DNA of 27,101 bases from Candidatus Thorarchaeota archaeon (GTDB lineage Archaea; Asgardarchaeota; Thorarchaeia; Thorarchaeales; Thorarchaeaceae). Below are positions 1,347 through 23,482 of this stretch, in pieces. The position numbers and the translations under genes were made by a program. The notes under the pieces were generated by a model. That model was not told where the DNA came from and ran no database searches. It saw only the letters and a list, made by a program, of their open reading frames with translations. Within the stretch, counting starts at the first letter, position 1. Every line of letters starts with the position of its first letter. The DNA lies in NCBI GenBank assembly GCA_004524445.1, contig SDNP01000036.1:1-27101 (forward strand), in the 5' to 3' direction.

Positions 1347-1347
1347 T

Positions 1348-1352: not shown

Positions 1353-1360
1353 CTCTAAAC

Positions 1361-2314: not shown

Positions 2315-2321
2315 GTGTAGA

Positions 2322-3005
2322 ATGATGAGTGAACGTCTATCAGCCTTTGATTTCCATACACATAGCCTACACTCAAAGGATGGGCTGAATAAACCGAAAG
2401 ACCTCTTTAAACTGATGAGAAAGAAGAATCTGAGAGGCATTGCCCTCACTGAGCATTGGAGAGCATCAACCCTCGATGTAATCGAAAAAGATGATAGGTT
2501 CATTCTTCCTGCAGCTGAGTTCAAGTCTACTGATTACGGGGAGCTCATAGGCGTGTTCACTCAAAACCATATTGAGAACAGGAGATTTATTGAGATTGCA
2601 GAAGATGTACATGACCAGGGCGGGTTCACCATCTTACCGCATCCCTGTGACCCAATACGAGGACAGACTGCAATAAGAAAGAGGCTTCCAGACTGGATTA
2701 TCGATAAGCACGTTGACTTCATTGAAGGAATCAATTCTAGATGCTTCATACCCCTGTTCAATAAGTGGGCACAAGATTTGGCAGACAAGCTCGAAAAACC
2801 CATGACAGCAGGGAGCGACGGACATTCCTTCCTAGAGGTTGGAAATGCGAAGACTTGGCTTCAAGATATATCAACTGCAGAGGATATCTATAGAGAATTG
2901 AAGAGAGGAAGAACCCAGATAACAGGGCATTGTTCGTTCTTGTTTGTGCATATTCCCACATTCATTTGGCAAAGAGCGAGGAGAGTGGCCTATGATGGTT
3001 GGTGA
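2322..3005 (+). CDS. PHP-domain phosphoesterase
   Basis: Has PHP metal motifs DFHTHSLHSKDG, LTEH (TDH variant), PHP, EGINSR and AGSDGH. The start is ATG 2322 or 2325 after AGGTG at 2313-2317. The ORF-track start at 2214 overlaps ubiA and is unlikely. Confidence 0.85.
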   Translation: MMSERLSAFDFHTHSLHSKDGLNKPKDLFKLMRKKNLRGIALTEHWRASTLDVIEKDDRFILPAAEFKSTDYGELIGVFTQNHIENRRFIEIAEDVHDQGGFTILPHPCDPIRGQTAIRKRLPDWIIDKHVDFIEGINSRCFIPLFNKWAQDLADKLEKPMTAGSDGHSFLEVGNAKTWLQDISTAEDIYRELKRGRTQITGHCSFLFVHIPTFIWQRARRVAYDGW

Positions 3006-5200: not shown

Positions 5201-8200
5201 TCAATCCCAATCAAGTCCGAGACTCTCGAGCAAAGCTAAGATATCTGCCTTTGACAAGCCTTTAGCTTCTTCTAGAATGAGGTCTATCTCATCCTTCGGA
5301 AGCCCTTTCTTAAGCAGCTTTGACCTTAGATCTTCCATATCCTCTGGTCTTTGTTCAAGAGATTCCTCGCTTGCTGCTTCACTCGGGACTTCTTTCTCAG
5401 CCAGCTCATCAGCCCGGCGAGCTTCCTCCTGTTCTATGACCTCTTTTAGGAATCCGGGGCGCTCACTAGCTTTCATTCGCGATAGGTCACGCCTAAATGC
5501 CTGGATTTCTTCATCACTCAGACCTGTGATTTCCACAAGTCTAGCAAGCAGTTCGTTCACTTCTGGTGCTCTGATATCAATTGGGATTTCGGCCACTTCG
5601 GCCGCGGTCTTCTTTATGGATACAGACTTAATCTCTTCATTGACTGCTGACAAGACGGTTGCTTGCCTGGAGGGGACATCAGCAGGGTCAGGTATTTTGC
5701 CCTTTGAGAGCGCTTTTATCATCTTATTCATTTTTCGAACGATCTTGGGAATGCTCCACACCTTGACATACAGCACAACCAATACTGCAATAATCATCAA
5801 TGATGTACCGCCACCGACTATGGCATTCTGCTGTGCTTGCTGTGCAGGGGTCAAATCGGAGAATACAGTGAATTCCACAGATTGAGTCTGATAATCCTTC
5901 TTGGCAAATTGCACATCGATATACATCGTATATGCCTGCAGAATCTCGAAATACAATTCGTAGGTCCCATTATCATAATCCGTGAGTCTGTCAGGATAAT
6001 ACCTTATTTCGCCTTCTGTGACGCTGACTGTTGGAACTACACCTGTTATGCCAGTATCATGGTCTGTGTCTAAATACGTAATGCGAATTGTGACCGGGGC
6101 ACCCGGGTATGCATCGATTTGGGTCCGAGCATAGATTAAATCTGTGTAGACCTGCCGCACGTTGAGAAGTATTTCATGTGATGGAACTCTGTAGAGATTT
6201 GTGGAAAATGTCAATGCGACACGATACTGACCTATTGGTAGATCACCGGGAACTGAGAAGGAATAACTACCATTTTCAAGAGGAATCAATTCAGTACTTC
6301 CAAGTGTTTCCCAAATTGCTAAAGCGTTGACGCCACCGACCACTTCATTGGTGAATTCATTGACGAGGTTCACGATGACGGTTGCAGTATCATTCACAGG
6401 AATGTCGATTTGAGATATTGCATCTATGAAAGCGTCGGTTGGTTTTACAAGCAGCCCCACAGTAATAGAACTGCTCTGGTAATTGAGCTTTGTAACTGAG
6501 ATTGTAACATCATATAGTCTGGGAATAGAATTATTGACGAAAATGGAAATTACATAGCTTCCATTTTCCAAGTCATATGCGGTTCCTGTGCCGCCTGTCC
6601 ATTCTATATCTACATTGGCACCCACTATTGGGGCATTAGTGTGTGTGTCATTCAGGTAGATTGTGTAATTTACAGTATCTCCTCTATATGCGTCATTCGT
6701 CAATACATTCGCAGCGGTTTCTGTAGGAATAGCCAAGATATTGAATGGCTGAGTTCTAGATGCCTGGGCATAGCCATCTTTTCGCGCAATGACCCTAAGA
6801 TACAGAGTTTGTGCTGAAAAGAGCGAGCTATTTATCTCGCCATAGTAGCGCCCATCTGGAAGCTGTTCCATTGAGGCAGTATAGCCTCCCAGTACTAATG
6901 AAATGTTTGCGCCATCGAGATAGCCACCATAGTAGGTATCGTTGTACTCAACATAGATTCCCAGAACATCACCGTATGTCACTGACAAAGAAGTAGTGCC
7001 TTCCTGCACGAGTATGCTAGTGGGAATTGGGGTCACTATTACATCCACAGATATACTGAGAAATTGATGATTCTCAGCACTGGCATATATCTGCAAGTCG
7101 TAAGTACTAATTGAGAATCCCGAAACATTGAGCGGCCCTTCGTAGAATCCTGTTGTGCCATTTCCGCTTAATGAAACTATCGTATTATTCCAGACCATAT
7201 AGACAGTTGCATCAGCAACAGGTTCATTGTTGGTAGTATCGTTCAGATAGATCCATAATGAAGACTCTGTTTCTCGTACAATCTGGATCGATGAGCTTTC
7301 TGGGAGAATTTGGCCCGTTGCTCTGTAAATTACGAGTGTAAACTCACGTTGTCTTGTTTGATAATACTGTCTGGAAACCGTAATCAGTGGACTGTAAACT
7401 CCGTAGCTCACCTGAGAAGTATCCAGATTTACATAATATGTCCCATTGCCCGCATCGATGCAATTGTACAACGTATCGTTGAACGATATTGTGGCAGTCA
7501 TGCCAGAAAGCAGGGTGCCATAATAGGAGTCTGTGACAGTGAAGCTAACCATCTTCATCTGACCCCAGTCGGAATAGTATGTGGACTTCTGCAAGTTGAT
7601 CTGAACGGTCGGGGCACCCGGCTGAATAGAGGGACTAACTTGGCTTTCTTCATAGTACTGAAGTGTTGCAGTAATGGTGAAACCATATTCTTGTGCAATC
7701 AACCCCGTTGTATTCAGCACTACCTGGTATCGACCTCCTGAGAATTCTACCACAGTGTAACTACGTCCGTACAAGTCCGCCCAATCGCTAGAGATAGTTG
7801 CACCCTCGATTCCTACCTCGTGGTCGGTATCTGTATATGTTACATTAACGCGGAATGGGTCGCCAATGGGAATCACGCCTGCAGGAGGTGTCTCATAAGA
7901 GATTGATGTAAGGATGTTGCGGATTGTTGCAGGGATATTTCTAGCAGTTCGGGATGCGTAAAATGGAATGCCATCCTTGGTAAATGTAACCTCGAAATGG
8001 AGTTTGCCAGTCTGTCCGAATTGCCCACTGGGTATTAACAGGCGATACAAGCCATCTCCTAATTCTATTGTATAATTCACGAAAGAAGTCAGATTAGTGG
8101 AGCTGACAGCTAATTCTGCACCTTCGATTCCTTCATCTGACAAGTAATCGATATAGCTAAGCTCAATAGTGATATTGTCGCCCAGAGGTGTATCTTGTAT

Positions 8201-11200
8201 TAGCGGGAATTGAATCTGCGTCGGACGTTCGATGGTGGTAGCAAGAACCGTCTTAGACCTTGCTGAGTAGTATGGCAGAATGCTGCTTCTGTTAATGAAG
8301 ATTCGAACCGTGTGTCCAGATACAAGTGCTGAATCATCGAGAAGAGTTGAATTGAATTCTATCTCGTAGTAGTCGGAAAATTGGGTCAGTAGGAATGAAT
8401 TATAGGGTATGAGGATTTCACTCTCACCATGTGACAATATGATGTATGATTGGTCAATATCAATTAGTTCACTTGTTAGAAAGTCCTCGAACTTGAACCG
8501 AATTGTCATATTCTCTAGAAAAGCTACGCTACCCGGCGTCTTGGTTATGAGAATTTGAGTTGGTCGTTCGATAACACGAGCATTCATACTTTTGACGACA
8601 TTGGCATAGAAGGGGGCTCCTGACTTCGATGCAGTCACATTCAGCGAGTAATCAGCAGGAGCACCTAATGATGAGCTGTTCAGTAGAATGGTATACTCGC
8701 CGGGGCTGGTTTCTGAAACCCAGTAATCTGTGTTAAAAACAAGAGTCAGAGGATCGGATGTCACAATTATGGATGCACCACTAATGCCCTCACCCGTTGA
8801 ATCATCGGTATAGCTCACAAGTATTGTGAAGTTCTCAAGGTATGCCGTTTCATCCGGGCTCTCGTATCCTAGCTGAGTATTTCTCTCGGAAACTGTCAGC
8901 GTGAAAATATCCAATGCGTCTGCCTCATAATTTCCCCCAGAGTACGATATTGACGCATTGATTGTGAATTGACCCACAGTGCCATTGAAAGATGTATTCA
9001 GAGTGACCCTATAGTGTCCTTGCCCAAGGTATTCGACGTCATAATATGAATCCGAGATATTTAGTGATAGGTTTCCCGTCATGCCGTCGGAACTACCGGA
9101 CAGCCGGTCCGTGTATTGGAAGTCGATAGTGATATTATTTGCATACTGACCCGGAGTGAATGGATCATGAGTCAGCTGGGTAGGTCGCAAGGTAACCATG
9201 ACTAAGAATTCTTTGTTTTGTATGGAGTCATAATATGGTGTACCAGTCCATGTAACGTTCAGATGGAGAGTGAAATCGCCCACACCACCGAGAGATGCAG
9301 AGTCTATTGTAACGAAGAATGTCTGACTTGCAGCGCTGTATGCAATTGTATAACCCACTGTTACCTCGTTGATTGATACCTGCAAGCTAGTTGAGTTCTC
9401 AATTACCATCGTGGTGAGGGAATCAATGAATTGGAATTGTAGAGTAGTTGTTTCACCATACGCCGTTGATGGAACGGGATTAGTATCTAGGTACGTTGGT
9501 CGACTGAGAGTAAGAAGGTTTACTGTGAGGGTCTGATTCTCATAAAGCGGGGCAGTAGCACTACGCCATCCGAAGAAAATCTCGAAGCTAAAGGTACCGA
9601 GCCCTTGCAATCGAGAGCTATTCAAAGTGAAATAGTAGAGACCCGGTTCAGTTACTGATTCCCAGACCACGAAGTCGCTCTGGACAGCAGGATTTTCTTC
9701 TCCTAAAGCTGTCACCATCAGGATGACATTCTCTGAAAAATTCGATATCTGAGATGAATTCACAGCATCTAGATATACAATACTGAATGAGAAGTTCTGA
9801 AGATAGTTCACCGCTACCGGTGCGTTTTCAAGATAGAGGTCTGTCTGACGCCCAATCAATCTGACTCTTGTATTGATTTCCTTTGATTCATATTTTCCAG
9901 ATAGAGAATCAATACTGATTGTGAGATTTTTCCACCCTATGGTTGACCATTGTGTGCTATCTATGGAGATATTGTAATGCCCGGTGCCAAGAAGAGAGTC
10001 GGTTACTGAGAATGTGATAGAAGACAATTCAGGAGTTGCCAGAGTAATCAGCAGATCGCCGGTGTCATTTGAAATACCTACGTCCAAGTCGGTATCCTCA
10101 AAGAAGACAAGGATGATAATATCATTGCCATGGTCGGTCTGCTGTACAGGCTCATCCAGCAGGAACACAGTCTTGTGTTGCTTGACGATTACATCAATGA
10201 CAAATGTCTGGTTTTGTATCTGATATCCTGTCAAATCGAATCGTACGGGATACGTTGCTAATGCATCATTATCAACAGTATAAATAGTTACATTGTAGGA
10301 TCCAGGACTGACTTCTTCCACTGTGTAGTTCATATCACCTTGCACGTGATTAAGGCTCCAGTTCGACACAATTGAGTTATTCATCCCAGTCATAGGTTCA
10401 TCATGGTCTACGTCTAACCATTCCACGGTGAATGAACGTGCCTCGCCAACAGGAATATCCAGAACGTTCTGTAGATATGTCGCTCTAGTATAGAGTTCTC
10501 GCACCGTAACATAGAGAAGACGGCTTTGAGGAAGAATAAAGTCTGCTGTGGCGGTTAGATTCACAACATAATCATCGAGTTCCATACCAGTTGTGTCGAA
10601 AGCCACGTCGAAGGTGCCAGGGCTTCCGCTGACTTCAGCGATATAGTATGGATTGCTCCAATTCGTTGTGAGCTGCCCATCATCAATCCCAGATCCGAAA
10701 TAGTCCTCGAATCGGATTCTGAAGGTCAGATTATCTCCAATTGGACCATCTTGCGAAGGTGAATCAGGAGATATAATGATAATACTCCCATCCAGATTTA
10801 GGTTCACTGTAAGGGTTTCGCTTATCGAATCGAAATTGGGATGATTCCATTCAATATCGATGATATACTGTCCTTTCGCACCCAGGTCGGTTGAGTCCAG
10901 TGTAACAATGTATTCGCCATCACCATTGTCCCCAAACTGGTTTATGCCATCAGTCCAATTGTATGTCATGACGCCCCCTGGTACAGTGACTCCAGGAATA
11001 TCCGTATCATTTACTAATATCCGCACCAGGAACAAGTCAGGATATGTCACGTTTGTGATCCAAGTAGATATGGCATCGGTTGGACTCAACAAAGTGGCAG
11101 TAGAAGAGTGGATAATATTGAAGCTTCGAACAAAGAATCCTGTCTTGTTCCATGCCGACCCTGCCAAGCTATTGTTTAGAATGGCTTGAACCTGCCATTC

Positions 11201-12874
11201 TCCAGCACTGGAATTAGTGCCGAAAGTAAGCACAGAGGTCGCGGCGTGACCTGTTGAATTGATAACTGCAATCTCTGAGTACCATTTAGAGCCTGATGGG
11301 TCGAATACGGTGATATTCACCGGTAGGCCAGAGAATTGAGAGTCATGAACAGTCACGAAACTGGACTTGTCATTAGCTCTCAAATCAATCTGTTGTGCAA
11401 CCTCACCTGTGCCTTCATGGTGCATCAACAGATTCTGGACCATATTTGGCGCATCGCTTCTTATCAGCCAGTATCCCCACCTATCATCGTGATCATATGC
11501 AGGAATCCTTGCCCACCATTCACCCTCATTCCATTCCGATAGACTCTGCGTTGTCAAAAGCGGAGAACCAACATAGTACACATCGCGATTCTGCGGAAGT
11601 GTTATGTTGAAATCGTATCGGTTATCGTATCCGTCTGGAATTTCTGCAAAGAACCAAGTTTCATAATTGACTGCTGAGGCATTTGTGACAGAATATGTTT
11701 CTCCATATGCAGTTGGGCTCTGAGTGAGAACAGTCATGTTATTTGCTCTTGCGTAGAGATTTGTGGTAACTGAGAAGTCAACTCTGATTTGCCTGTCGGG
11801 ACTGGGAGGAAGAGGATCGGGAGTCCAGCTGAACTCAATGGAAACCGGACTGGATGTCCAGGTGCTGGATGGCGTGTATGACAAGTTACCCAACCCATAT
11901 TGAGTTGTACCACCAATTGTGTAATTGTTTACATCATTGTCTTCGGCTTTGAGATTTACATTGCTAGGGGCTGCAAGTGTCTTCAAGTATAGCTCCACAT
12001 TGTCAACTCTAGCCTCAGGGTCTAGATTAGGATCATAGTTTACCGTTTGCTGGCTATACAATCCGACCTCAATATAGACACCATCTGACAAGTCAAACGG
12101 AGTCAAGTCGTCGATTTCAATCAATCCGCTATCAAACCATGCTCGAGCTGTATCAACATCATTGAATGACTTTTGCCACACTCGTTGGTTGTAGTTGCCA
12201 GTTTCAACGGTAACATAAATTGCCACAAATCCATCTCCACCTGACCACGATGAGTCGATCCAATAATCAAGCCTAAGTCCAGCCCAGACTACATCTCCAC
12301 GAGGTACGGTCATGGTTTGTGAAGCATAGGCTATTTTACCCTCATTGGGATCGCCAGTATAGCTAAATTGCGTGCAGTTATCATCAGTGCCATGACCACC
12401 CTCAAGCCATGAGGCGTCACCACTGACATCAGTCAAAGTCCACGACGATGGTGAAGTTTCCATGTCAGGGTCTTGTACCCAGGTTCTATTCTCGGTTAGG
12501 TCATTCACGGACAAAAATACGTTATATCCTTCCCAGCCATTACCCAAAGGAATTTCTACAGATGTATTGGTGGTTGCTTGACTAGTGCTATTGTATGTCA
12601 TCTGATTAGCAGAAAATGTATCAGTTCTGTTCCCGTATTCAGTGACAGGTAGACCGGAGGAACTGCCCTCCCATGACGACATAGCTTCTGATGGTGTCGC
12701 ATAGTTGTTTGTATCAAATTGCGGAGGAGCATCTCTCCTTTCAGTTATAAAGTCATGACTAGGTAGTGCATTCTGTTTGCCAGTTGACCCTGATATGGTG
12801 AAGACAGAGCTGAATATTGGCAATATCAGTATTGCCGCGAGAACGAGTGAAACGATTATTGTTTTCCTATTCAC
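5201..12874 (-). CDS. Giant type I membrane surface glycoprotein A (2557 aa): signal peptide, CBM-like plus MG2-like head, 17 Ig-like repeats, TM helix, 184-aa cytoplasmic tail
   Basis: N-terminus MNRKTIIVSLVLAAILILPIF. The ectodomain is Thr/Ser/Asn/Tyr-rich with many N-x-S/T sequons. Single TM at about aa 2351-2373 (nt 5756-5824), followed by a charged helical tail. GTG start with a perfect SD. Confidence 0.9.
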   Translation of the reverse strand: MNRKTIIVSLVLAAILILPIFSSVFTISGSTGKQNALPSHDFITERRDAPPQFDTNNYATPSEAMSSWEGSSSGLPVTEYGNRTDTFSANQMTYNSTSQATTNTSVEIPLGNGWEGYNVFLSVNDLTENRTWVQDPDMETSPSSWTLTDVSGDASWLEGGHGTDDNCTQFSYTGDPNEGKIAYASQTMTVPRGDVVWAGLRLDYWIDSSWSGGDGFVAIYVTVETGNYNQRVWQKSFNDVDTARAWFDSGLIEIDDLTPFDLSDGVYIEVGLYSQQTVNYDPNLDPEARVDNVELYLKTLAAPSNVNLKAEDNDVNNYTIGGTTQYGLGNLSYTPSSTWTSSPVSIEFSWTPDPLPPSPDRQIRVDFSVTTNLYARANNMTVLTQSPTAYGETYSVTNASAVNYETWFFAEIPDGYDNRYDFNITLPQNRDVYYVGSPLLTTQSLSEWNEGEWWARIPAYDHDDRWGYWLIRSDAPNMVQNLLMHHEGTGEVAQQIDLRANDKSSFVTVHDSQFSGLPVNITVFDPSGSKWYSEIAVINSTGHAATSVLTFGTNSSAGEWQVQAILNNSLAGSAWNKTGFFVRSFNIIHSSTATLLSPTDAISTWITNVTYPDLFLVRILVNDTDIPGVTVPGGVMTYNWTDGINQFGDNGDGEYIVTLDSTDLGAKGQYIIDIEWNHPNFDSISETLTVNLNLDGSIIIISPDSPSQDGPIGDNLTFRIRFEDYFGSGIDDGQLTTNWSNPYYIAEVSGSPGTFDVAFDTTGMELDDYVVNLTATADFILPQSRLLYVTVRELYTRATYLQNVLDIPVGEARSFTVEWLDVDHDEPMTGMNNSIVSNWSLNHVQGDMNYTVEEVSPGSYNVTIYTVDNDALATYPVRFDLTGYQIQNQTFVIDVIVKQHKTVFLLDEPVQQTDHGNDIIILVFFEDTDLDVGISNDTGDLLITLATPELSSITFSVTDSLLGTGHYNISIDSTQWSTIGWKNLTISIDSLSGKYESKEINTRVRLIGRQTDLYLENAPVAVNYLQNFSFSIVYLDAVNSSQISNFSENVILMVTALGEENPAVQSDFVVWESVTEPGLYYFTLNSSRLQGLGTFSFEIFFGWRSATAPLYENQTLTVNLLTLSRPTYLDTNPVPSTAYGETTTLQFQFIDSLTTMVIENSTSLQVSINEVTVGYTIAYSAASQTFFVTIDSASLGGVGDFTLHLNVTWTGTPYYDSIQNKEFLVMVTLRPTQLTHDPFTPGQYANNITIDFQYTDRLSGSSDGMTGNLSLNISDSYYDVEYLGQGHYRVTLNTSFNGTVGQFTINASISYSGGNYEADALDIFTLTVSERNTQLGYESPDETAYLENFTILVSYTDDSTGEGISGASIIVTSDPLTLVFNTDYWVSETSPGEYTILLNSSSLGAPADYSLNVTASKSGAPFYANVVKSMNARVIERPTQILITKTPGSVAFLENMTIRFKFEDFLTSELIDIDQSYIILSHGESEILIPYNSFLLTQFSDYYEIEFNSTLLDDSALVSGHTVRIFINRSSILPYYSARSKTVLATTIERPTQIQFPLIQDTPLGDNITIELSYIDYLSDEGIEGAELAVSSTNLTSFVNYTIELGDGLYRLLIPSGQFGQTGKLHFEVTFTKDGIPFYASRTARNIPATIRNILTSISYETPPAGVIPIGDPFRVNVTYTDTDHEVGIEGATISSDWADLYGRSYTVVEFSGGRYQVVLNTTGLIAQEYGFTITATLQYYEESQVSPSIQPGAPTVQINLQKSTYYSDWGQMKMVSFTVTDSYYGTLLSGMTATISFNDTLYNCIDAGNGTYYVNLDTSQVSYGVYSPLITVSRQYYQTRQREFTLVIYRATGQILPESSSIQIVRETESSLWIYLNDTTNNEPVADATVYMVWNNTIVSLSGNGTTGFYEGPLNVSGFSISTYDLQIYASAENHQFLSISVDVIVTPIPTSILVQEGTTSLSVTYGDVLGIYVEYNDTYYGGYLDGANISLVLGGYTASMEQLPDGRYYGEINSSLFSAQTLYLRVIARKDGYAQASRTQPFNILAIPTETAANVLTNDAYRGDTVNYTIYLNDTHTNAPIVGANVDIEWTGGTGTAYDLENGSYVISIFVNNSIPRLYDVTISVTKLNYQSSSITVGLLVKPTDAFIDAISQIDIPVNDTATVIVNLVNEFTNEVVGGVNALAIWETLGSTELIPLENGSYSFSVPGDLPIGQYRVALTFSTNLYRVPSHEILLNVRQVYTDLIYARTQIDAYPGAPVTIRITYLDTDHDTGITGVVPTVSVTEGEIRYYPDRLTDYDNGTYELYFEILQAYTMYIDVQFAKKDYQTQSVEFTVFSDLTPAQQAQQNAIVGGGTSLMIIAVLVVLYVKVWSIPKIVRKMNKMIKALSKGKIPDPADVPSRQATVLSAVNEEIKSVSIKKTAAEVAEIPIDIRAPEVNELLARLVEITGLSDEEIQAFRRDLSRMKASERPGFLKEVIEQEEARRADELAEKEVPSEAASEESLEQRPEDMEDLRSKLLKKGLPKDEIDLILEEAKGLSKADILALLESLGLDWD
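5855..11110 (-). repeat. 17 tandem Ig-like beta-sandwich repeats of about 100 aa in protein A (protein-level repeats)
   Basis: Recurrent consensus T-x-L...G...(I/V)x(V/F)x(Y/F)xD...(G/P)IxGA...W...(E/D)...GxYx(I/V)x(L/I)x(T/S)...Y, counted by eye over aa ~589-2340. Confidence 0.75.
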
Positions 12875-15800
12875 TCTTCATCACCTCCAAGTTGATCCAA
12901 AAGCGCTTGTATTTCGGGCTTTGTCAAGCCTCTTGCCTGCTCAACCATTAATTCCACTTCGTCCTCTTCAATTCCCATTTTCATGAGCTTGTTTCTGATG
13001 TCGTCCAGTTCTTCTTCTGTGAGCTTCTCAGGACCCATCTCTTCTACAAGTTCTTCTTCTCGTGCAGTTTCTGCGATTTCTTTTGCACGCCGGGACTTCT
13101 CTTGTCTGAGAACCTCGCCAATGAATCCCGCGCGTTCACTTGGTGCCATCTTTTCTAGGTCGTCTCGCAAGACAGACAGGTCATCTGCAGTGAGTCCTAC
13201 AACAACCGCGAGCTCATCAAGAAGCTCTTCAACGTCCAGAATGCTAACATCTAACGTCGATGGCGCTACATCATCAATGACCTTCCTAATGCCTAAAGGC
13301 TCCAAATTCTCATTCATGGTTTTCAGCAGCATGGTTCTCCGGTCATTGACATCTGCTCTCTCTGGAATTCTTCCCTTTTCCAGGGTTGAAACCATTGACC
13401 TAAGTTTTCGAAGGAGCTTGGGAATCGAAAGCACCCTGAAGTACAAGGCTGCTAGTGCAGCCAGCACAAGGAGAATGAGAGTTCCGTTAAAGAATGTCTG
13501 TACCAACAAAGCTTGTTCAGGGCTGATTTCTGAGTAAATGGGGATTGAAACAGTGCTAGACTGATAATCTCTCTTATCTAGGGTTATCTCGAGGGAATAC
13601 AGGGCGGCTTGGCCAGCCACGAATCTGAATACATAGGTTCCATTGTCATAATCTATTTCTTCATCTTCCAGCCGAGTTAGTCCAAGACCAGCCGCTGTAA
13701 TAGTGGATGTCGTATTCGATGCATCCAGAACAGCCATGTCGTGATCCAAATCCCAATATGTAACCGTTACGGAGAATGGCTCACCTGAATATATTATGCT
13801 GGGACTTACATCCCACAATAACTCAGTCAGAATGGCTCTAATTGTAATTTCCACAACAAGTTCTCCGGTACTATAGTTGCCCTTTGTGAGAAGAATTCGA
13901 ACCACATATGGTTGATTTCTGATCTCAAGCCGACTGAGATTAGTTTCGGCTGGACCGAACCGGTAGGAGCCATTTCCTAGATTCGCCAAGCTTAGGCCCC
14001 CAAATTCCCAAATCGCACTCGATGACGCATCACCTATTAGTACGTCATTCAGCGTATCATTGAAAGTGAATATGACCGAGTAGTCATCACCAACTGGAAA
14101 GACCCACTCTTGCGCGCCAATAACCTCTGTAGTGATAGGATTGACCAAGAGCTTAGCTTGAGTTTGTGCTTGTTTGTGTGCACTCTTTGCAAGAGTTATG
14201 GTGATATCATATGGAACCAGTCCTGCGCTAACGACACTTGTATTCACAACAAGCGAATAGTTACCGTTTCCAAGGTCGGAGAGAACTCCTACTGTATCCT
14301 CAAGCTGGAATGTGCTAGTTGCATCGGGAACACCCACAGCATTATGGGTATCATTGAGGAATAGATAGAAGGTTACATTTTCACCATAATACGCTTCTTG
14401 CAGAACATCTCCTAGAACTAAGATTCTTGTGGGGATCGGGTCAAGGTCCAAAGTAAAATCAAGTGATGATGTGGTGTATCCGGGCTTCGAACCAAAGATG
14501 GTAAGAGTCCATGTTCTTAAGTCTAGGCCTGTTGTGTTTACATCGGCCCTATAGTATCCGTCACCAGTTTCAGTTAGATTTCCAGTGATATCACTGACAG
14601 AGAATGAGAGGGTGGCACCGACAACAGGTAGAGAGAGGTCAGTGTTATTGAGAAATACCTGGATTGGTATTACATCTCCAATGATTCCTGAAACAACTGT
14701 TGTGTCTTCGACTGATACTATCTGAGTTGTCACCTCACGTATTTCGATATTAAGCGGAACAGTGAGGGATTTGTAATTCGCAGACTTTGCAGTTACAATT
14801 ATGAGATGATTTCCAGCAGGAACGTCTGACACAATGAAATGTCCAATGTATAGCTCTTGGGTTTCATTCCAAATCAGTGTGCCTTGACCATATGTCCAGC
14901 TGAACGAAACGGTACCTACTGCAATGGATGTGCTATTTGCAGTTACTACATAATCAGCCGTGATTGTCAAATTCTGTCCACTTACAGCTATTACTGGATC
15001 AATATCTGCAGAGAGAGATGATGCCGCTTTTTCAATTCTGATTGAAAAATCACGGCTTCTGGATTCATGGTCCTCCAGCTCAAATGCCACGGTGATCGCA
15101 TATTCACCTGCGCTTACCACAGAGGAAGTTATGTTTCTACCGTAGAGACCCTCACCTAGTTCCTGCAACTCGTAGACAACGCCACCTAGAGTTATATTCA
15201 CATTCCCACCAAGTACAGGGCTGTCATCGCGACTATCCGTGATATTTGCTACGAACTCTATTTCATCCCCCCAAACAGGTGCGATTGGGGTCAACCCCAA
15301 ATTGATTGAGATGGGCGTTGGTGAGAGCAGCAACTCTATAGCCACTGTTCTGTTGACGTGAAGGTACTTAGACGCGTTTATTGAGAAGGAATATGATTGA
15401 GCGGATAGACCTGATGTTTCTAATGTTAGCTGATATATGCCGTTTCCAATTTCTGTCAAGGAATATGGGTTCCCAACTGCAACACCCCAGTCGGTACCAA
15501 CGGCAGCGTCCTCTATCCCGATACCTTGAGAAATGTCGGAGTACGAAATGTTCACAACAATTGTATCACCAGTGTAGTATGTACTACCTGGTTCCAAGTC
15601 TAAAGTCAGTGTCGTCGACACCGGATTCACTGTTAGGCTAAACTGGACAGAAGTCAAGTTGGCATAGAATGGAGAACCTAAATACGTGATGTTCGCTAGA
15701 AAGATGTACTTGCCCAGCTCGCTTAGATCCGTGGTGTTGATGATGATTTCATACGTTCCGTCCCGCCTATCAGTTATCCAGTGCCCAAACGAAGAAACGT

Positions 15801-18800
15801 TCTCACATGAAACTGAAATCTGAGCTCCTGCGATAGGGTCACCACTGAGATAATCCGTGTATTCTATTATTGCGGTTCCATTGAAGTTGATGAATGCAGG
15901 CGGTGTTGATAGTACTGCTGCTTGGGTAAATCTAGCAGTTATAGCGACCTCAGTAGAAGCACTTGCATTGGAATAGAAGGGAGCTTCATCGCCCCATTGA
16001 ATCTCAACAAACAGCGGGTAACCCTGAACAAGTTCAGCAACCAGAATTGTTGAATTTATTGAGATGATGTATACTCCTGAGCTGCCCGTGAGAACATATT
16101 CAGAATCCAGCAGAAGAATATCTGAACCATGTTTCAAGACTAGGTGGCTCTTATTGATGCTAACTAGAGATTCAACAAGAGAGTCTGTCACTGTAATTTC
16201 GAATGTAACATTCTGTAGATATGCAGTATTCAGTGGTGATTCTGAAACGGATAATTCGAGCGGTCGCCGAGAAACCTCAATATCAACACTAGTTGACCGC
16301 TGAGTAAAGAACGGAGAACCTGTGTAGTTCACAATGATATCAATTGCATATGAGCCAAATGTGCCCAATGCTTCTGTTGAAATTCGTATTCTGTAATTGC
16401 CATCACCCAGAGAATCAATCCAGTAATTCACATCTTTTTCTAGAGTTTCAGCTGAGGTTTCTGATGAAATGAAAACATTTGCATTCTCGATGCCAAATCC
16501 ATTATTATCATCAATGTACTGAATCGTGATGTTAGCTTGAGTCAGGAAGGGGGCCAAGTCCGGCAAATCGCTAGTTAACTGAGTACGTCTTCTACTCAAG
16601 GTGAGGTAGAAGTAATCGGAAGCATTGGCCGCAAAGCGATCACCGCCATAGATGATAGTGGCATTGACTCTATAAATTCCAAGTGATGCAAAGGCGGTCG
16701 TATTTAGTTGAATTGTGTATGTGCCATCACCATTGTCATGAACGGTATAGTAATCACTCAACCATGAATCCAGTGTGAGCTCAGCGCCATCCATTCCTGA
16801 TAAGGAGTTGTCATCCAAGTCGGTGTAGAAAAAGTCCAGCGTCAAATTGTTACTGTATTGAACGGAATCGTAGCTACCATGAGTGAGGGAAGTGTACCTA
16901 TACCTTAGCTCTATGGTGATTGCAATTCCTGTTCTATTTTGATAAAAGGGAGAACCACTCCAGATAACATTAAGATGGAATTCAAATGTCCCGACATCGC
17001 CCCAATAAGTGGTATCAATGCTCAAGACAAAGAGTGCACTTGTTTCGAGATAGTATGTATCTAGTACCACGCCACCTTCTGAAACAGATATTTCTATGCT
17101 AGAGCTGTTTTCTATTCTCGAACTGCTTAGAACGTCATTATAGCTGAATGTGAAGTTTACAGGTTTGTCATAGGCTGTAATGGGCAATGGCGTGTACTCA
17201 ATCGAAGTCTGACGGTATATTGTTCGTACAGTAACTGAGAGAGATGCATTTGAATACAGTGGCAATTCCCCTTTCGTCCAGTTAGCGTAGACTCGTAAGT
17301 CACATGTTGTGATTCCTGAGAGATAGTTGGTACTGAATTTGATTTCATACTCTCCCGAACCAATTTCAGTCACCATAATCAACGAGCTATTGAGTTCATG
17401 GCCACTACTCAGTACAAGGACGTACATACTTACATTGAATGCGTACGGACCAGTCGAATTCACGATACCGGAGTCGGCTGCTACGTCCCAGTAGAAAACA
17501 GTGAAGGTAATATTTTCTCCATAGGGGGTTGAAACAGGATTGTTGCCAATAAACAGAGTTGCAGGCGTATCAGATATCCGGACACTGGTTGAGATAGTCC
17601 CGTTTCCATATTTCTCGATCGATCCTGTCCAATTGGCGAAAATCTCAAGGTCTTTCCAACCAATAGAACCCCACTGGTCTGCAGCAATCTCGATGATATA
17701 TTCGCCAAGTGTCGTGCCATTATAGACCGTGTACTCAATTCCTGGAACCTCGTCCGACAAAATGTAAATCAGCACATTATGTCCATTAGCAGTTCCGTTC
17801 CCAATTCCTGTCTCCAGTGTCACGTCATAATAGCTGACCGTTACGATGATAGTGCCTGTATAGGGTGTTGGCTCTATTGGGTTTACTAATGAAAATGTAG
17901 ATAGGTGAGATTGAATATCTACATCTATGTTGAAGGTATGATTTTGAGCCCCGTATTTTCTGACTTGAAATTGAACAGGATGGCTACCTATGAAATCGGT
18001 TTCCACCGAATAGAAGTCAACCCTGTATTCTCCCGGACTTATTTCAGTCACTGTGTAATTTGAATCTCCTTGAGCATGATAGTCAGACCAATTGCAAGAA
18101 ATAGCGCCGGCGGCACCTGTTATTGGTTCGTTATGGTCGGTATCCGTGTAGGTCAATGTTATAGAGCCTTGGGTCCCAACAGGCAATGGTAAGTAACTTG
18201 AAGATACAGCAATTGAGGTAAAGAGCTGTCTAACCTCTAAGAATACTGTAGTCTGAGATGTGATGTAATAATCAGCTACTGCAGAAATGACGATCGCGTA
18301 AGTATCAATCATCGCTGTTGATGTTGATAAGTTGAGCATATAATGACCCGGGCTACCGGCCACGGGACTAACAGAATATTGACCATCTGTCCAATTGCAT
18401 ATGATTGTGGCGTCCGTTATTCCTGCATTATCTTGATCATTGAATACTACTTCAATGGTTGCACTGGAACCTAGCGGAGTTTCAACACTAGGAGCATCTG
18501 GAGAATAGAGAGAGGTTTCTTCAACAATATTGATTGTGAATATTCTCTCTATCGGGTCATAATGCTGTAATGACCATGTGATGGTAATTTCGTAACTGCC
18601 TCTGCCCGGTAAATCAGAGGTATCTAATACAACGCTGTATTCGCCGGTGCCCATGTCGCTTAGAGGCTGCGTGCCCGTAGTCCAATTATATGTGGTTATC
18701 CCTCCGGGTAGCAAATCAGCATTATCGGAATCGTTTACTCTAACTTGTAATAACATCTCTTGACCAAGTGTCAGATTTTTTGTCCATGTACTCTCCGAGC

Positions 18801-20637
18801 CCTTCGGATAAGTTAGGCTCATTTGTGTAGAGTGTTGAATTCTGAAATTCCGAGAGTACATGCCGATATTATCAATCGGGCGTCCTGAAATAGAATCATT
18901 AACTATAGCTTGCACAGTCCAATATCCGACTTCAGCATCTGTCGCGTCAAGGATGATATCCGAACTCTCAGCATAACCAGAACCATTTACCATTGCAGTG
19001 GTTGTGGTCCATATATCTCCGGTCGTATTGTAGAGATAATAGGTTACGGTACATCCCGAATAAATGCTATCAAGCTGTGCCCTTAACCGAATGGCCTCAT
19101 TAGCTCTATAGACCGACGTTGTTTCCCAAGTTGCATCAGATAGCATTCTCAGGTCAGATATCATATTGGATGAGTAAGACTCAATTTTCCAGAACCCGTT
19201 TTGATTACTTCCCGTGACACCTTCATAGACTGAAATATTTAGATAGTCACCAACAATACTCCAGTATGGGAAATTCTCGCCAGGTTTTGAAGGTTCAGCA
19301 ACAGCATCGACTATACGCCCCCCCGGATTTGTCACGTTAAAGTGAAAGACATCAGAATAGCCATTCGGCACGGCCACGTAGTAATAAGAGAGCCATTCAA
19401 CCTGAGAGGCATTTTCGACCTCAAAGTGCTCGCCATAACTACTGACTTCTGCTTGATATAGAGTTGGTTTGTTCAGTTTTTCTGCTGTAAGTGTGATCTC
19501 GGCATCGAATGTGACGAATATGTCAATATCTGGACTTGGTGGAGAGGGAGTTGGCGTCCAAGTGAAATTCGCATCCACTGGACTTGAAGTCCAAGGTAGC
19601 AGTGGCTCTTGTGTGACCTGACCCAAGCTCCAAATGGTATGAGTTCCATTTTCAACATCAAGAACATCTAGACTGTTCACTTGGAGGTTTACATCACTTG
19701 GTGTGGCTCTTGCCTTTATGAAGACCCGGATATTATCGAGTCGAACCTCAGGATAAAGGCGAGGTCTCGCGCCGAATGTTCGGGTTGTACGCATTCCAGC
19801 TTGAATTGTTAGGTTTGGCAAGTTAATCAAGTTATGGTCAGCTTCAACAAGTCCACTTGAATACCAAGTACTGATGCTTTGCACGTCGCTGAATTGGATG
19901 TCCCATAGATGATTTGAAACAACATCATCGGTACCAACTTGAACATAAAGCTCCCAGAAGCCAATAGGAGGGTTTCCCCAATCGTCATATACCCAGTAGT
20001 CTACGGATACTCCAGCCCAAGTGACTTCACCTCTATCAACGCTAATATCTTGCTCAACATAGGCTCTGTCACCCTCATCGAACCGGAAGTAATTGCTGGA
20101 GTCTTGGCCAAGCATCGTGAACTGTGCATATTCACCGGTTATCTGCGATGTTATTGAGTTTGAATAAATGCCAACATCATCCGTACCAGTAGTCCAGTTA
20201 TCAGTGGAACCAAAACCGGGATTCTGTAACCATGTCCTGTTTTCCTGCAGGTTTGTCACATTCACAAACATCTCGGTGCCTTGCCACTGAGCGCCCATAG
20301 GAACCTGAGTAACTTGGTTCGATGTTGAGCTAGTTGCTGAGTCGTATTGCAGGGAGATATCATTGAAGGAATCTACTCGGACTCCATGTTCTGAAGCATT
20401 CTGAGCTGTTGCAGTTCCAGAATGGGTATCAGGTGCCTGAGAAAGTGTGTAGACGTAGAGCGATTCATCCGGAGCCAATGGTATTTTCTCGCCACCTACA
20501 TCCACCATTTTCTCATTGATGACATCCGTATTATCTCCTTCATGAGTACTTGAAGAATAAGATGGCACCATGAAAGATCCAAGCATGAGAATAATCACGA
20601 CAGAAACTAGCACGCAGATTGAGCCTGATTTTTTCAA
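12871..20637 (-). CDS. Giant type I membrane surface glycoprotein B (about 2588 aa), full-length paralogue of A
   Basis: Probable TTG start at 20637 (GGAGG 9 nt upstream) gives the signal peptide MKKSGSICVLVSVVIILMLGSF. Same domain order as A. TM at nt ~13429-13497 and a 185-aa tail. The ORF-track start at 20724 adds 29 residues that do not look like a signal peptide. Confidence 0.9.
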   Translation of the reverse strand: MKKSGSICVLVSVVIILMLGSFMVPSYSSSTHEGDNTDVINEKMVDVGGEKIPLAPDESLYVYTLSQAPDTHSGTATAQNASEHGVRVDSFNDISLQYDSATSSTSNQVTQVPMGAQWQGTEMFVNVTNLQENRTWLQNPGFGSTDNWTTGTDDVGIYSNSITSQITGEYAQFTMLGQDSSNYFRFDEGDRAYVEQDISVDRGEVTWAGVSVDYWVYDDWGNPPIGFWELYVQVGTDDVVSNHLWDIQFSDVQSISTWYSSGLVEADHNLINLPNLTIQAGMRTTRTFGARPRLYPEVRLDNIRVFIKARATPSDVNLQVNSLDVLDVENGTHTIWSLGQVTQEPLLPWTSSPVDANFTWTPTPSPPSPDIDIFVTFDAEITLTAEKLNKPTLYQAEVSSYGEHFEVENASQVEWLSYYYVAVPNGYSDVFHFNVTNPGGRIVDAVAEPSKPGENFPYWSIVGDYLNISVYEGVTGSNQNGFWKIESYSSNMISDLRMLSDATWETTSVYRANEAIRLRAQLDSIYSGCTVTYYLYNTTGDIWTTTTAMVNGSGYAESSDIILDATDAEVGYWTVQAIVNDSISGRPIDNIGMYSRNFRIQHSTQMSLTYPKGSESTWTKNLTLGQEMLLQVRVNDSDNADLLPGGITTYNWTTGTQPLSDMGTGEYSVVLDTSDLPGRGSYEITITWSLQHYDPIERIFTINIVEETSLYSPDAPSVETPLGSSATIEVVFNDQDNAGITDATIICNWTDGQYSVSPVAGSPGHYMLNLSTSTAMIDTYAIVISAVADYYITSQTTVFLEVRQLFTSIAVSSSYLPLPVGTQGSITLTYTDTDHNEPITGAAGAISCNWSDYHAQGDSNYTVTEISPGEYRVDFYSVETDFIGSHPVQFQVRKYGAQNHTFNIDVDIQSHLSTFSLVNPIEPTPYTGTIIVTVSYYDVTLETGIGNGTANGHNVLIYILSDEVPGIEYTVYNGTTLGEYIIEIAADQWGSIGWKDLEIFANWTGSIEKYGNGTISTSVRISDTPATLFIGNNPVSTPYGENITFTVFYWDVAADSGIVNSTGPYAFNVSMYVLVLSSGHELNSSLIMVTEIGSGEYEIKFSTNYLSGITTCDLRVYANWTKGELPLYSNASLSVTVRTIYRQTSIEYTPLPITAYDKPVNFTFSYNDVLSSSRIENSSSIEISVSEGGVVLDTYYLETSALFVLSIDTTYWGDVGTFEFHLNVIWSGSPFYQNRTGIAITIELRYRYTSLTHGSYDSVQYSNNLTLDFFYTDLDDNSLSGMDGAELTLDSWLSDYYTVHDNGDGTYTIQLNTTAFASLGIYRVNATIIYGGDRFAANASDYFYLTLSRRRTQLTSDLPDLAPFLTQANITIQYIDDNNGFGIENANVFISSETSAETLEKDVNYWIDSLGDGNYRIRISTEALGTFGSYAIDIIVNYTGSPFFTQRSTSVDIEVSRRPLELSVSESPLNTAYLQNVTFEITVTDSLVESLVSINKSHLVLKHGSDILLLDSEYVLTGSSGVYIISINSTILVAELVQGYPLFVEIQWGDEAPFYSNASASTEVAITARFTQAAVLSTPPAFINFNGTAIIEYTDYLSGDPIAGAQISVSCENVSSFGHWITDRRDGTYEIIINTTDLSELGKYIFLANITYLGSPFYANLTSVQFSLTVNPVSTTLTLDLEPGSTYYTGDTIVVNISYSDISQGIGIEDAAVGTDWGVAVGNPYSLTEIGNGIYQLTLETSGLSAQSYSFSINASKYLHVNRTVAIELLLSPTPISINLGLTPIAPVWGDEIEFVANITDSRDDSPVLGGNVNITLGGVVYELQELGEGLYGRNITSSVVSAGEYAITVAFELEDHESRSRDFSIRIEKAASSLSADIDPVIAVSGQNLTITADYVVTANSTSIAVGTVSFSWTYGQGTLIWNETQELYIGHFIVSDVPAGNHLIIVTAKSANYKSLTVPLNIEIREVTTQIVSVEDTTVVSGIIGDVIPIQVFLNNTDLSLPVVGATLSFSVSDITGNLTETGDGYYRADVNTTGLDLRTWTLTIFGSKPGYTTSSLDFTLDLDPIPTRILVLGDVLQEAYYGENVTFYLFLNDTHNAVGVPDATSTFQLEDTVGVLSDLGNGNYSLVVNTSVVSAGLVPYDITITLAKSAHKQAQTQAKLLVNPITTEVIGAQEWVFPVGDDYSVIFTFNDTLNDVLIGDASSSAIWEFGGLSLANLGNGSYRFGPAETNLSRLEIRNQPYVVRILLTKGNYSTGELVVEITIRAILTELLWDVSPSIIYSGEPFSVTVTYWDLDHDMAVLDASNTTSTITAAGLGLTRLEDEEIDYDNGTYVFRFVAGQAALYSLEITLDKRDYQSSTVSIPIYSEISPEQALLVQTFFNGTLILLVLAALAALYFRVLSIPKLLRKLRSMVSTLEKGRIPERADVNDRRTMLLKTMNENLEPLGIRKVIDDVAPSTLDVSILDVEELLDELAVVVGLTADDLSVLRDDLEKMAPSERAGFIGEVLRQEKSRRAKEIAETAREEELVEEMGPEKLTEEELDDIRNKLMKMGIEEDEVELMVEQARGLTKPEIQALLDQLGGDEE
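12881..12888 (-). promoter_or_regulatory. Shine-Dalgarno site of gene A, embedded in the last codons of gene B
   Basis: The minus strand reads GGAGGTGA, 6 nt before GTG 12874. The GTG start overlaps the TGA stop of gene B (GTGA, 12871-12874). Confidence 0.8.
13528..18834 (-). repeat. 17 tandem Ig-like repeats of about 100 aa in protein B (protein-level repeats)
   Basis: Same consensus as in A, with 17 units counted by eye. Confidence 0.75.
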
Positions 20638-20646
20638 TGGAATGTT

Positions 20647-20651
20647 CCTCC
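20647..20651 (-). promoter_or_regulatory. Shine-Dalgarno site for gene B
   Basis: The minus strand reads GGAGG-AACATTCCA-TTG. Confidence 0.65.
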
Positions 20652-20734
20652 GGAAGATAAGGCGGTGAGACCTAGATTCGACCCATAAGCCGAATCTCAT
20701 TTGTTCAGTAAAGATGCTACACACTTATGGATAA

Positions 20735-21655: not shown

Positions 21656-23482
21656 TTATGCTTCTTCAGGGCTAGTAACCTTCAGGTAGCTGAATCCATG
21701 CTCTCCCTCGTAAGAAACCTCGGCTTCTTGCGTAGGTGTTATCAATAGGACAACCGAATGCTTCTTGACATATTCCGGTGGTGCCTCTTCAACTTTGAAT
21801 TCACCACGAGTGAGGGCAACCTTGTAGCCAGATTTGAGTTTCTTTATCTCAGGATGGACTGATACGTCTATTCCGATTCTAACCTGTAAATCCTCATTCC
21901 TGACAATTAGCAACTCTTGGTCGTCTATTTTCTCAGCAGACAACACATTCATCCATCCTCGAAGCTCTTCGCTCAGCTCCTCCAAATCAGCCGGTTCTCC
22001 ATGAAGCTCTATATCAAGGTCTTTCGCATCTTTCACATTGCCTTGGACCTCATTGAGGATAGGGGTTATTTCAGTTGTGTCCCAGCCCTTTTTCACGAAC
22101 ATCTTCAGCGCATGTTCTGCAATCTTTTCTAATGCAGGCTTAAGTCGGTCATGTGATGATGAGGATATTTTATAGAGATTAAGAAAGCTTGATAGTGCAC
22201 CCTCTTCCTTCCCATATGCTGCTCCTATTTTGTAAGCATTAACCGAGAGTTGCCACGCATTATCATAGTCGTCGAACTGGATACAGTACTTGGCAATATC
22301 ATTCAGCAGTCTGATTGTCACCTCGGGATATTCCAGTTTTGTCTTTGTTAGAGAAAAGCCACCCATGAACTTTCGCAGAATCTGCATAGAAACATACAGC
22401 CCTTCTGAGGTTTCCATCATCTCCGCAAGATTCGTTCTCTTCAGCATTGAATCGTATAGGCTGTAAAAGTAATCTATTTCCTCGTAATCCTCTCTGATTA
22501 ACGCAATTACAATACGGACAAAGAAAACCGATGCTTTTAGTGCGTCGTCTGAAACGCCAGTGAACATGAGCAACCGAAATGCCTCATCACTTATTTTCAA
22601 AGCCTTCTCAACGCCTTCTCGGGTCCCTCTGTATAGGTAGCACATCATCTCAAGGAAGTAGAGAAACAGTGTAAGGTCATTTGCATGGTCCACCAATTTT
22701 TCATGGGTTTGCGAGTCTTCTGTCAATGTCGACACGATTAGGAGGCGTTCAATTTCATTCTGGACAGCAGATATCTCATTGGCTAGTACTTCATATCGGC
22801 CTTCTTGGAAATCTTCAAACATGTCAGGAATTCCAGCCTTGATATCTTCAAGAAAATCGAGAACAAAAAGTGGTTGTCCCTTCGAGAGATCCTTATCGAG
22901 GGTGTCAGCGGGTCGCTTGACAGTTCGCAGTACTCGCATAGCGTGATCTTCAATAATTCTTATTCGGGTGACCGGATCATAAGAAGCACTCCTTTTAATG
23001 CTATATCGAACTTCTTGAGTATAGATTCGCTCCCTAATTTTCCTGAGGTCTTTCTTCAGCTTGTCGGAGTCAATCTGTTCAATGAGCTCTAACATGAAGG
23101 CTGAGCCAACTATCCCTTCCGCTTTCACATTTTTGAGGTCTTGAATTGTATTGAGCAATTTTAAATCGCTTGTGACAACTTTGGAATTCTTGGCACGCAT
23201 GGCTGCAAGAATAAGAGACATATCATTAGGCTGCGGCAGAGAACTCTCTGGTCGATTTATGCTCTCCATGAATTGTTTGATGTCCTTCTTTAAAGTTTCA
23301 TCAATCTTTATTATTTTCTCTACTTCTCGTCGCAAATACCATCTTAATTCCTGGAAAACCTGTCGGGTAATCCACAGTTCAATATCCAGCGCATCCGCGG
23401 CCTCTTTTACAGTATAGACATCCTTTGGCCTATCGCTGAAGCCGCTTATGAAGAAATTTGCATCCAGGTATGCTCTCATCAA
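21656..23482 (-). CDS. PIN-domain nuclease fused to a long alpha-helical region and a C-terminal beta-rich (OB-like) domain
   Basis: PIN acidic tetrad D7 (YLDAN), E45 (VFQEL), D87 (NDMSLI), D106 (VTSD). The middle of the protein is helical. GGAG at 23490-23493 lies upstream. Start is TTG 23482 or ATG 23479. Confidence 0.8.
   Translation of the reverse strand: MMRAYLDANFFISGFSDRPKDVYTVKEAADALDIELWITRQVFQELRWYLRREVEKIIKIDETLKKDIKQFMESINRPESSLPQPNDMSLILAAMRAKNSKVVTSDLKLLNTIQDLKNVKAEGIVGSAFMLELIEQIDSDKLKKDLRKIRERIYTQEVRYSIKRSASYDPVTRIRIIEDHAMRVLRTVKRPADTLDKDLSKGQPLFVLDFLEDIKAGIPDMFEDFQEGRYEVLANEISAVQNEIERLLIVSTLTEDSQTHEKLVDHANDLTLFLYFLEMMCYLYRGTREGVEKALKISDEAFRLLMFTGVSDDALKASVFFVRIVIALIREDYEEIDYFYSLYDSMLKRTNLAEMMETSEGLYVSMQILRKFMGGFSLTKTKLEYPEVTIRLLNDIAKYCIQFDDYDNAWQLSVNAYKIGAAYGKEEGALSSFLNLYKISSSSHDRLKPALEKIAEHALKMFVKKGWDTTEITPILNEVQGNVKDAKDLDIELHGEPADLEELSEELRGWMNVLSAEKIDDQELLIVRNEDLQVRIGIDVSVHPEIKKLKSGYKVALTRGEFKVEEAPPEYVKKHSVVLLITPTQEAEVSYEGEHGFSYLKVTSPEEA

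Follow-up and report, generated by a model that had tools for sequence, protein, structure and literature searches.

Two coupled giant genes of a Thorarchaeota archaeon as probable ancient duplicates of a differentiated 17-domain Ig-like surface protein

In this study, we analysed a stretch of 27,101 nucleotides (nt) from a Candidatus Thorarchaeota archaeon (assembly GCA_004524445.1, contig SDNP01000036.1, positions 1 to 27,101 of the forward strand; hereafter the window), in which two adjacent giant paralogous genes lie on the minus strand. The upstream paralogue is called U and the downstream paralogue D (B and A, respectively, in the original prediction, which was made from the sequence alone). 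The explanation that we consider probable is that U and D are ancient tandem duplicates of an ancestor whose 17 domains had already differentiated, that they form one coupled operon and that their products likely share a surface structure. The two proteins are collinear along their full length in BLASTP (32% identity, 3% gaps) and have a common plan, consisting of a hydrophobic signal segment at the N-terminus, then a head of ~580 amino acids (aa), a long repeat region or stalk, one C-terminal transmembrane (TM) helix and a cytoplasmic tail of ~185 aa. N-glycosylation sequons number 72 in U and 69 in D versus 27±4.7 in shuffled sequence, a 2.6-fold enrichment, and cysteine is almost missing from both proteins, features that fit a predicted archaeal extracellular glycoprotein.

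A hidden Markov model (HMM) of the repeat, grown iteratively from one seed, identified exactly 17 repeats of ~100 aa each in U and in D. The stalks measure 1761 aa in U and 1744 aa in D, close to the ~1769 and ~1752 aa expected beforehand. Global percent identity was dropped as a measure of cognate resemblance because forced global alignments inflate the background (32% versus 25±4%), and local alignment scores and trees were used to tell cognate from non-cognate repeats. In the all-against-all Smith-Waterman (SW) comparison the cognate D repeat was the top D match for 16 of the 17 U repeats, the exception being the near tie of U13 (62 against D13, 64 against D15); scores on the diagonal ranged from 62 to 252, those off it mostly from 25 to 100. 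The maximum-likelihood tree of all 34 repeats recovered 16 of 17 sister pairs of repeat n of U with repeat n of D, ten of them strongly supported, and none of 200 label shuffles matched this result. When 170 repeats from five U and five D proteins of different genera were placed in one tree, all 17 positions, position 13 included, formed single clades. Thus the positional identity of 17 versus 17 Ig-like domains that had been read from the sequence is borne out by the HMM, the SW matrix, the trees and the structure model described below: the repeats group by position and not by protein, the 17 sister pairs that had been expected are found nearly in full, and all the repeat motifs that had been quoted are present in the U and D translations. 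A separate observation concerns repeats r4 and r5 of U (17212-17901, minus strand), whose SW score of 133 against each other is as high as the scores with their own D cognates, versus 35 for r4 and r5 of D; either an old duplication of r4/r5 followed by more rapid drift of D r5 or a local conversion in U could account for this.

The AlphaFold2 model of U r7-r9 (predicted local distance difference test, pLDDT, 94.5; predicted template modelling score, pTM, 0.78) comprises three all-beta domains, each a beta-sandwich. Foldseek placed titin immunoglobulin (Ig) triplets at the top of its matches to this model, together with FdeC, filamin and NCAM (E 1e-12 to 1e-9), the titin matches being a resemblance of fold at 9-13% identity. 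The modelling therefore supports a predicted stalk of tandem Ig-like sandwiches arranged as beads on a string. The number 17 refers to members of one repeat family, the head holding two more beta-sandwich domains of which the last is MG2/Ig-like. Among the curated Pfam families of Ig-type repeats, Big/InlK included, the best hits all fell below the gathering threshold (Filamin 21.8 bits, cut-off 26.9; CarboxypepD_reg 21.0, cut-off 32.3; MG2 21.9, cut-off 32.8), and no family was assigned to stalk, head or tail by Pfam, NCBI names or PDB sequence search. The 65-70 nm given earlier for the extended stalk is reasonable as an upper bound for a straight 17-domain rod, and as nothing more.

The phylogeny of the full-length proteins points to the age of the duplication. 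In a tree of 37 sequences, U and D formed separate clades, each with a Shimodaira-Hasegawa-like approximate likelihood ratio test (SH-aLRT) support of 100, and the two subtrees mirrored each other. The single genome of the sister family (G025) was basal in both clades, which places the U/D duplication before the class. The 17 domains were already distinct from each other when the duplication took place, and the positional similarity is thus inherited orthology. Every complete U and D orthologue extracted, from ~15 genera and from the sister-family genome, has 17 repeats; accordingly, independent variation of the two counts was not seen. Two apparent deviations in the HMM counts were rejected, 16 in one D protein (G002b), where one repeat was missed within a 194-aa spacing, and 18 in one U protein (G007), where one repeat was split into 63+44 aa. 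Among orthologues, the U stalk measures 1733±5.5 aa and the D stalk 1723±4.3 aa for sequences at about 47-52% identity, and the lengths of the domains at each position are likewise conserved. About 40 full-length D homologues of 2528-2588 aa are present among public proteins, under the name 'hypothetical protein [Candidatus Thorarchaeota archaeon]'.

A probable mutational basis for this constancy lies in the DNA. Tandem Repeats Finder detected nothing with a period of ~300 nt, and no direct DNA repeat exceeded ~17 identical nt, the longest being short and imperfect. With no identity between repeats at the DNA level, there is no substrate for unequal crossing-over or homogenisation. Constancy of count is also not peculiar to the pair. 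Other members of the family in the same genome carry about 6, 9-11 and 30 or more repeats, and the unpaired paralogues, which are 3-6 thousand aa long, keep their own repeat count within each orthologue group; in the group of ~5060 aa, for example, the first repeat always lies near aa 1500-1540 and the last near aa 4730-4770. Position-specific HMMs revealed an ordered backbone 3-4-5-6-7-x-8-9-10-11-...-17 in the unpaired paralogues, expanded by block insertions (a duplicated 6-7-x-8-9 segment and extra 8- and 10-type units). Since the unpaired paralogues keep the positional order, the positional code predates the U/D pair, and domain number appears, from the sequences compared, to have changed only via rare block events that define the paralogue groups. 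Given a constant count in the whole family and so low a baseline of change, zero changes in U and D are unsurprising. As to the family itself, the paralogues in the genome of the window are located at G000:C25 (at least 4918 aa), C28:32376 (1956 aa), C38:28698 (1555 aa) and C17 (at least 1738 aa). Lineage-specific single-pass giants of up to about 6500 aa in relatives (loci L061-L080) have the same repeat type and the same TM-plus-tail module with different heads, and several such genes stand in tandem in other genomes.

The two genes are linked in expression and inheritance as well as in descent. In nearly all of 19 loci, the window included, the stop codon of U and the start codon of D overlap, as GTGA in the window and as ATGA or TAATG in the others, and a GGAGG motif 8-10 nt upstream of the D start, inside the last codons of U, is kept in nearly all of the same loci. 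This is the classic layout for coupled translation, which would be near-equimolar. The GGAGG of the window is encoded by conserved C-terminal '…LGG…' residues of U, so that the C-terminus of U is under constraint as protein and as RNA alike. A search of 87 genomes of the class found U and D orthologues in most of them, with U orthologues at 46-89% identity throughout the class, and wherever both genes are on one contig (roughly 37 genomes) U adjoins D and is upstream of it. In one genome (G002, C22:1-31000; L041, L042) two pairs follow each other as U-D-U-D and differ in phylogenetic affinity: the first clusters with a genome of the same genus (G017), and the second takes another place in the U tree and in the D tree alike, so that an entire pair was either duplicated long ago or acquired together. 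Neither U nor D was found in a 96%-complete genome (G003), and a second genome of that genus (G097) has a U fragment. The pair is thus duplicated or lost as a unit, which supports joint function, as does the correlation between the per-position conservation of U and that of D that is given below.

Two genomes that might have been taken as counter-examples were rejected. One (G082) has non-adjacent remnants covering r11-17 and r3-17 on an N-gapped scaffold where the truncated open reading frames (ORFs) begin at N runs; the other (G044), in which no pair was seen, also has an N-gapped scaffold. In a further genome (G052), U is spread over four reading frames (r1-5, r5-14, r14-16, and r17 with the tail; L083, G052:C3:351500-369500) that still run from r1 to r17 in order, next to an intact D of 2612 aa; the split U is either a recent pseudogene or a sequencing or assembly indel error.

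From these results, we propose that the ancestor was one gene, whose product was a giant archaeal surface protein that crossed the membrane once and bore many N-glycans. Between a signal peptide with a lectin-like head and a TM helix with a conserved cytoplasmic tail, this protein would have carried 17 differentiated Ig-like domains. Tandem duplication of this gene before the last common ancestor of the class (Thorarchaeota) would have produced U and D, and repeat n of U would resemble repeat n of D by inheritance, with no present-day process aligning them. No domain seems to have been gained or lost since then in any complete orthologue examined, putatively for two reasons: unequal recombination would have no substrate where repeats share no DNA identity, and purifying selection is likely to act on each domain, as suggested by a position-specific conservation profile that U and D have in common. 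Low mutational opportunity together with purifying selection on each domain is sufficient to explain the constancy. Expressed from one operon by coupled translation, the two proteins would be made together and in similar amounts, and most likely they serve together, as two subunits or as co-deployed components, in a single tall glycoprotein structure of the cell surface that the C-terminal helix anchors, with the shared tail contacting a common cytoplasmic partner. Coupled expression and co-inheritance make a joint function of U and D likely. None of our results speaks against the ancestry part of this explanation, and three points weigh against the explanation as a whole. First, constancy without selection on length cannot be separated from constancy under such selection, given that a ruler or a pairing of stalks also predicts zero changes. 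Second, the block duplications in the paralogues indicate that gain of domains is mutationally possible in this family. Third, the case for joint function is drawn solely from operon structure and co-inheritance.

Alternatively, U and D might stand side by side in a hetero-oligomeric stalk, domain n on domain n, in which selection forbids any change of count. Lateral in-register packing of archaeal Ig stalks has a precedent in Pyrobaculum arsenaticum, whose 292-kDa surface-layer (S-layer) protein PySLP combines 19 Ig-like domains with a TM helix at the C-terminus; there, Ig7-Ig14 of six chains stand in register as a pillar and raise the lattice to 37 nm above the membrane (bioRxiv 10.64898/2026.08.21.746120). 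Pairing would agree with 17 repeats in both proteins of every genome examined, with coupled translation and strict adjacency, and with duplication and loss of the pair as a unit. It would further agree with the correlation between U and D in per-position conservation along the stalk (Spearman rho 0.82), r1-r9 on the membrane-distal side being more conserved than r12-r17 in both proteins, and in median per-position domain length (r 0.91). However, shared ancestry and an operon predict every one of these features as well, and the count is equally constant in the unpaired paralogues. Small stalk-length changes show no positive co-variation between U and D in 13 genomes (r = -0.58, a value obtained with no phylogenetic correction and not interpretable as coevolution). 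Moreover, the NHL propeller that occurs in U alone in several genera would give the two chains unequal total height. A weaker point against pairing is that the conserved sequons, which are located where strand B begins, where strand E ends and midway along strand F, would lie on both sheets in canonical Ig topology, PySLP being thought to be glycosylated too. We therefore regard an in-register hetero-oligomeric stalk as possible but rather unlikely.

Another alternative is a molecular ruler or spacer without pairing, in which each protein holds its head or canopy at a fixed height, ~60-70 nm if straight, and selection acts on total length. The standard deviation of stalk length is within 0.3% over the class for sequences differing by about 50%, and the heads vary (NHL propeller present or not) where the stalk does not. 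Fixed-length stalks are also known in other archaea, at ~70 nm in Staphylothermus, ~30 nm in SlaB and 37 nm in PySLP (bioRxiv 10.64898/2026.08.21.746120). Nevertheless, a pure spacer would tolerate domain swapping or homogenisation, and the positions keep their identity even in paralogues of other lengths, while the genome of the same cell encodes members of the family that range from 6 to over 30 repeats, which suggests no single preferred height; selection for a ruler is thus unlikely in our view. It had been proposed originally that selection fixes length and register, as for side-by-side pairing or a ruler. The constancy itself holds class-wide, but its attribution to pairing or a ruler does not follow, since simple descent predicts the same and unpaired paralogues are constant too. 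Because the duplication predates the class and the domains were already different by then, the results do not single out selection for either, and physical in-register pairing of the U and D stalks remains doubtful.

Ongoing gene conversion or concerted evolution between the adjacent genes could in principle keep the repeats in register. The genes are adjacent and collinear, and the copies in the sister-family genome are more alike than those in the family f1. Nevertheless, U and D fall into clean, separate clades, they share no DNA repeats at 32% protein identity, and within f1 no U/D gene conversion was detected, the similarity of repeat n of U to repeat n of D being equal within and between genomes at every position. 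This mechanism is therefore effectively refuted for f1 and appears highly improbable. In the sister-family locus (L057, G025:C33:5500-22600), U and D are markedly more alike than in f1 at nearly all positions (up to +159 SW units at r4), owing either to slower divergence or to past gene conversion in that lineage. Finally, chance resemblance or an assembly artefact such as a duplicated contig segment, for which we found nothing in favour, is refuted by the shuffles (0 of 200 reached the observed clustering) and by the occurrence of the pair in independent assemblies of dozens of genomes and metagenomes.

To our knowledge, no Thorarchaeota have been cultured or imaged, and we know of no surface lattice in any of them; according to S-layer reviews, little has been characterised of the envelopes of these phyla (PMC8559796). 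The closest system described so far is that of the PySLP-type 'colossal' S-layer proteins of Thermoproteota. Like U and D, PySLP (~290 kDa, almost wholly Ig-like) is built of tandem non-identical Ig-like domains and has an N-terminal distal part, an Ig stalk and a C-terminal TM helix, N-glycosylation being putative in all of them. PySLP, whose structure supports a rise of roughly 4 nm per Ig domain (bioRxiv 10.64898/2026.08.21.746120), is encoded by a single gene and forms homo-hexamers, whereas U and D are two paralogous, translationally coupled genes. Its tail is short, basic and ends in Lys, in contrast to the acidic, helical tail of ~185 aa that U and D share with their paralogues, and the CBM-like jelly-roll head of U and D lacks crown or plate domains. 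A phmmer search of U against all PDB chains returned no match, and the likeness to PySLP described here is one of architecture. In Sulfolobales, SlaA and SlaB are likewise encoded by two adjacent genes and together make up an archaeal surface layer whose stalk contains Ig domains and is anchored in the membrane (bioRxiv 10.64898/2026.08.21.746120), but they are neither paralogues nor collinear, and only SlaB, with a stalk that is largely coiled coil, is anchored.

Among bacteria, SiiE, the LapA/MpIBP-type RTX adhesins, Bap and FdeC/invasin are also surface proteins in which a long series of ~100-aa Ig-like domains underlies a ligand-binding region and acts as an extender. The repeats of giant bacterial adhesins are often near-identical in DNA and variable in number among strains, as in Acinetobacter Bap (PMC4647330), whereas U and D have neither DNA repeats nor number variation. 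In addition, these adhesins are exported by a type I secretion system, as autotransporters or through sortase, and lack a TM helix with a cytoplasmic tail. In eukaryotes, the arrays of titin, cadherin-23 and protocadherin-15 have a fixed domain number, their length serving as ruler or tether. They resemble U and D as long arrays in which conservation of each position across species exceeds the likeness of neighbours; the resemblance is one of fold and evolutionary pattern only, titin being intracellular and having no duplicated gene pair. Our literature searches found no description of an Asgard or Thorarchaeota giant Ig surface protein family like U and D.

The AlphaFold2 model of the U head (pLDDT 87.3) comprises a CBM/Eph-type jelly-roll followed by two beta-sandwiches, and among its matches in Foldseek are CBM4/CBM61, Eph ligand-binding, MAM-Ig-FN and S-layer Ig arrays. 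Co-folding of the U head (98-503) with the D head (65-460), each with its own orthologue alignment and with no controls, gave 0.01 against a mark of 0.32, a value that counts neither way. In at least six genera U has an additional N-terminal six-bladed beta-propeller of NHL repeats (~300 aa; PF01436, E 1e-34), which never occurs in D. The U orthologues bearing it (L043, L045, L047, L050, L054, L056 and L058; for example L054:14540-17374, minus strand) are 2882-2919 aa long, and their 17-repeat stalk is unaltered. At the opposite end of the protein, the tail alignment showed that the TM helix and tail are common to nearly all giant paralogues. Among 251 genomes of the phylum, the tail module occurs in families f1, f2 and f12 only, that is, in this class and one other family (f12). 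It holds two related helical units, …LTxLSxEELxxFxxDLxKMxxSER… and …EELxxLRxxLxxxGxxxxEIDxIxEQAKxL…, is acidic and helical, ends in ...GGDEE and ...GLDWD, and has no Pfam match. Sharing of this module across paralogues suggests a common cytoplasmic partner, which the tails of U and D probably contact.

Within a lineage-specific family of predicted giant single-pass glycoproteins, the U/D pair is the member retained most widely, and this retention makes it a leading candidate for the principal structure on the surface of these Asgard archaea. The array was differentiated by position before the family radiated and has since undergone only rare block insertions, so that it offers a prokaryotic parallel to the positional conservation of titin-like proteins. 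More tentatively, U and D might form a hetero-oligomeric in-register Ig pillar or fibre, built of two paralogues where the PySLP pillar is a homo-hexamer, as the main tall (~60-70 nm) glycoprotein coat of Thorarchaeota, with the tails linking it to an intracellular partner, a picture that we think improbable on present results. If it were true, equal domain number would be a structural requirement, the conserved tails would be an Asgard-specific transmembrane link between surface layer and cytoplasm, and stalks packed in register would constitute the first heteromeric Ig-pillar envelope, with a rationale for the fixed domain number. If the stalks do not pair, the duplication of a gene accounts for the equal counts in an ordinary way, and it is the protein family, not the match of 17 to 17, that is of interest. 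In either case, this study adds a repeat-by-repeat phylogeny, the family-wide positional order with its block insertions, the lack of gene conversion and the gradient of conservation along the stalk.

The features of the two genes are compiled in Table 1. The true start of U is probably an ATG a few codons inside the first GTG.

Table 1. Features of genes U and D in the window, with positions given for the whole stretch and aa numbers for the respective protein
Feature	Position	Strand	Description and basis
Gene U (upstream paralogue)	12871-20724	minus	2617 aa from first GTG; ORF list and translation
U N-terminal hydrophobic signal/anchor	20566-20628	minus	aa 33-53; hydrophobic run with basic residues before it
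U head	18808-20550	minus	aa 59-639; CBM/lectin-like jelly-roll, then two beta-sandwich domains; AlphaFold2 and Foldseek
U stalk	13525-18807	minus	aa 640-2400; 17 non-identical Ig-like repeats; repeat HMM and fold of r7-r9
U repeat starts, r1-r17			aa 640, 738, 836, 942, 1055, 1172, 1277, 1380, 1489, 1601, 1704, 1805, 1902, 2002, 2100, 2201, 2299; stalk end aa 2400
U TM helix	13423-13479	minus	aa ~2416-2434; aligns with TM helix of all paralogues
U cytoplasmic tail	12874-13422	minus	~183 aa; helical, acidic; common to whole giant-protein family
U/D junction	12871-12888	minus	GGAGG 12884-12888, 9-nt spacer, D start GTG 12872-12874 overlapping U stop TGA 12871-12873
Gene D (downstream paralogue)	5201-12874	minus	2557 aa; ORF list and translation
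D signal segment and head	11084-12865	minus	signal aa 4-24, head to aa 597; three-domain plan as in U; BLASTP and joint head alignment
D stalk	5852-11083	minus	aa 598-2341; 17 Ig-like repeats; repeat HMM
D repeat starts, r1-r17			aa 598, 699, 796, 902, 1011, 1126, 1231, 1332, 1439, 1551, 1658, 1754, 1861, 1954, 2050, 2148, 2243; stalk end aa 2341
D TM helix	5765-5824	minus	aa 2351-2370
D cytoplasmic tail	5204-5764	minus	~187 aa; homologous to U tail, about 39% identity

The locus is flanked by genes for a 608-aa PIN-domain protein (21656-23482, minus strand) and a 376-aa leucine-rich-repeat protein (25234-26364, minus strand), and upstream on the plus strand by a DUF362-UbiA-PHP-LPG_synthase_TM cluster (255-4032) followed by TyrRS.

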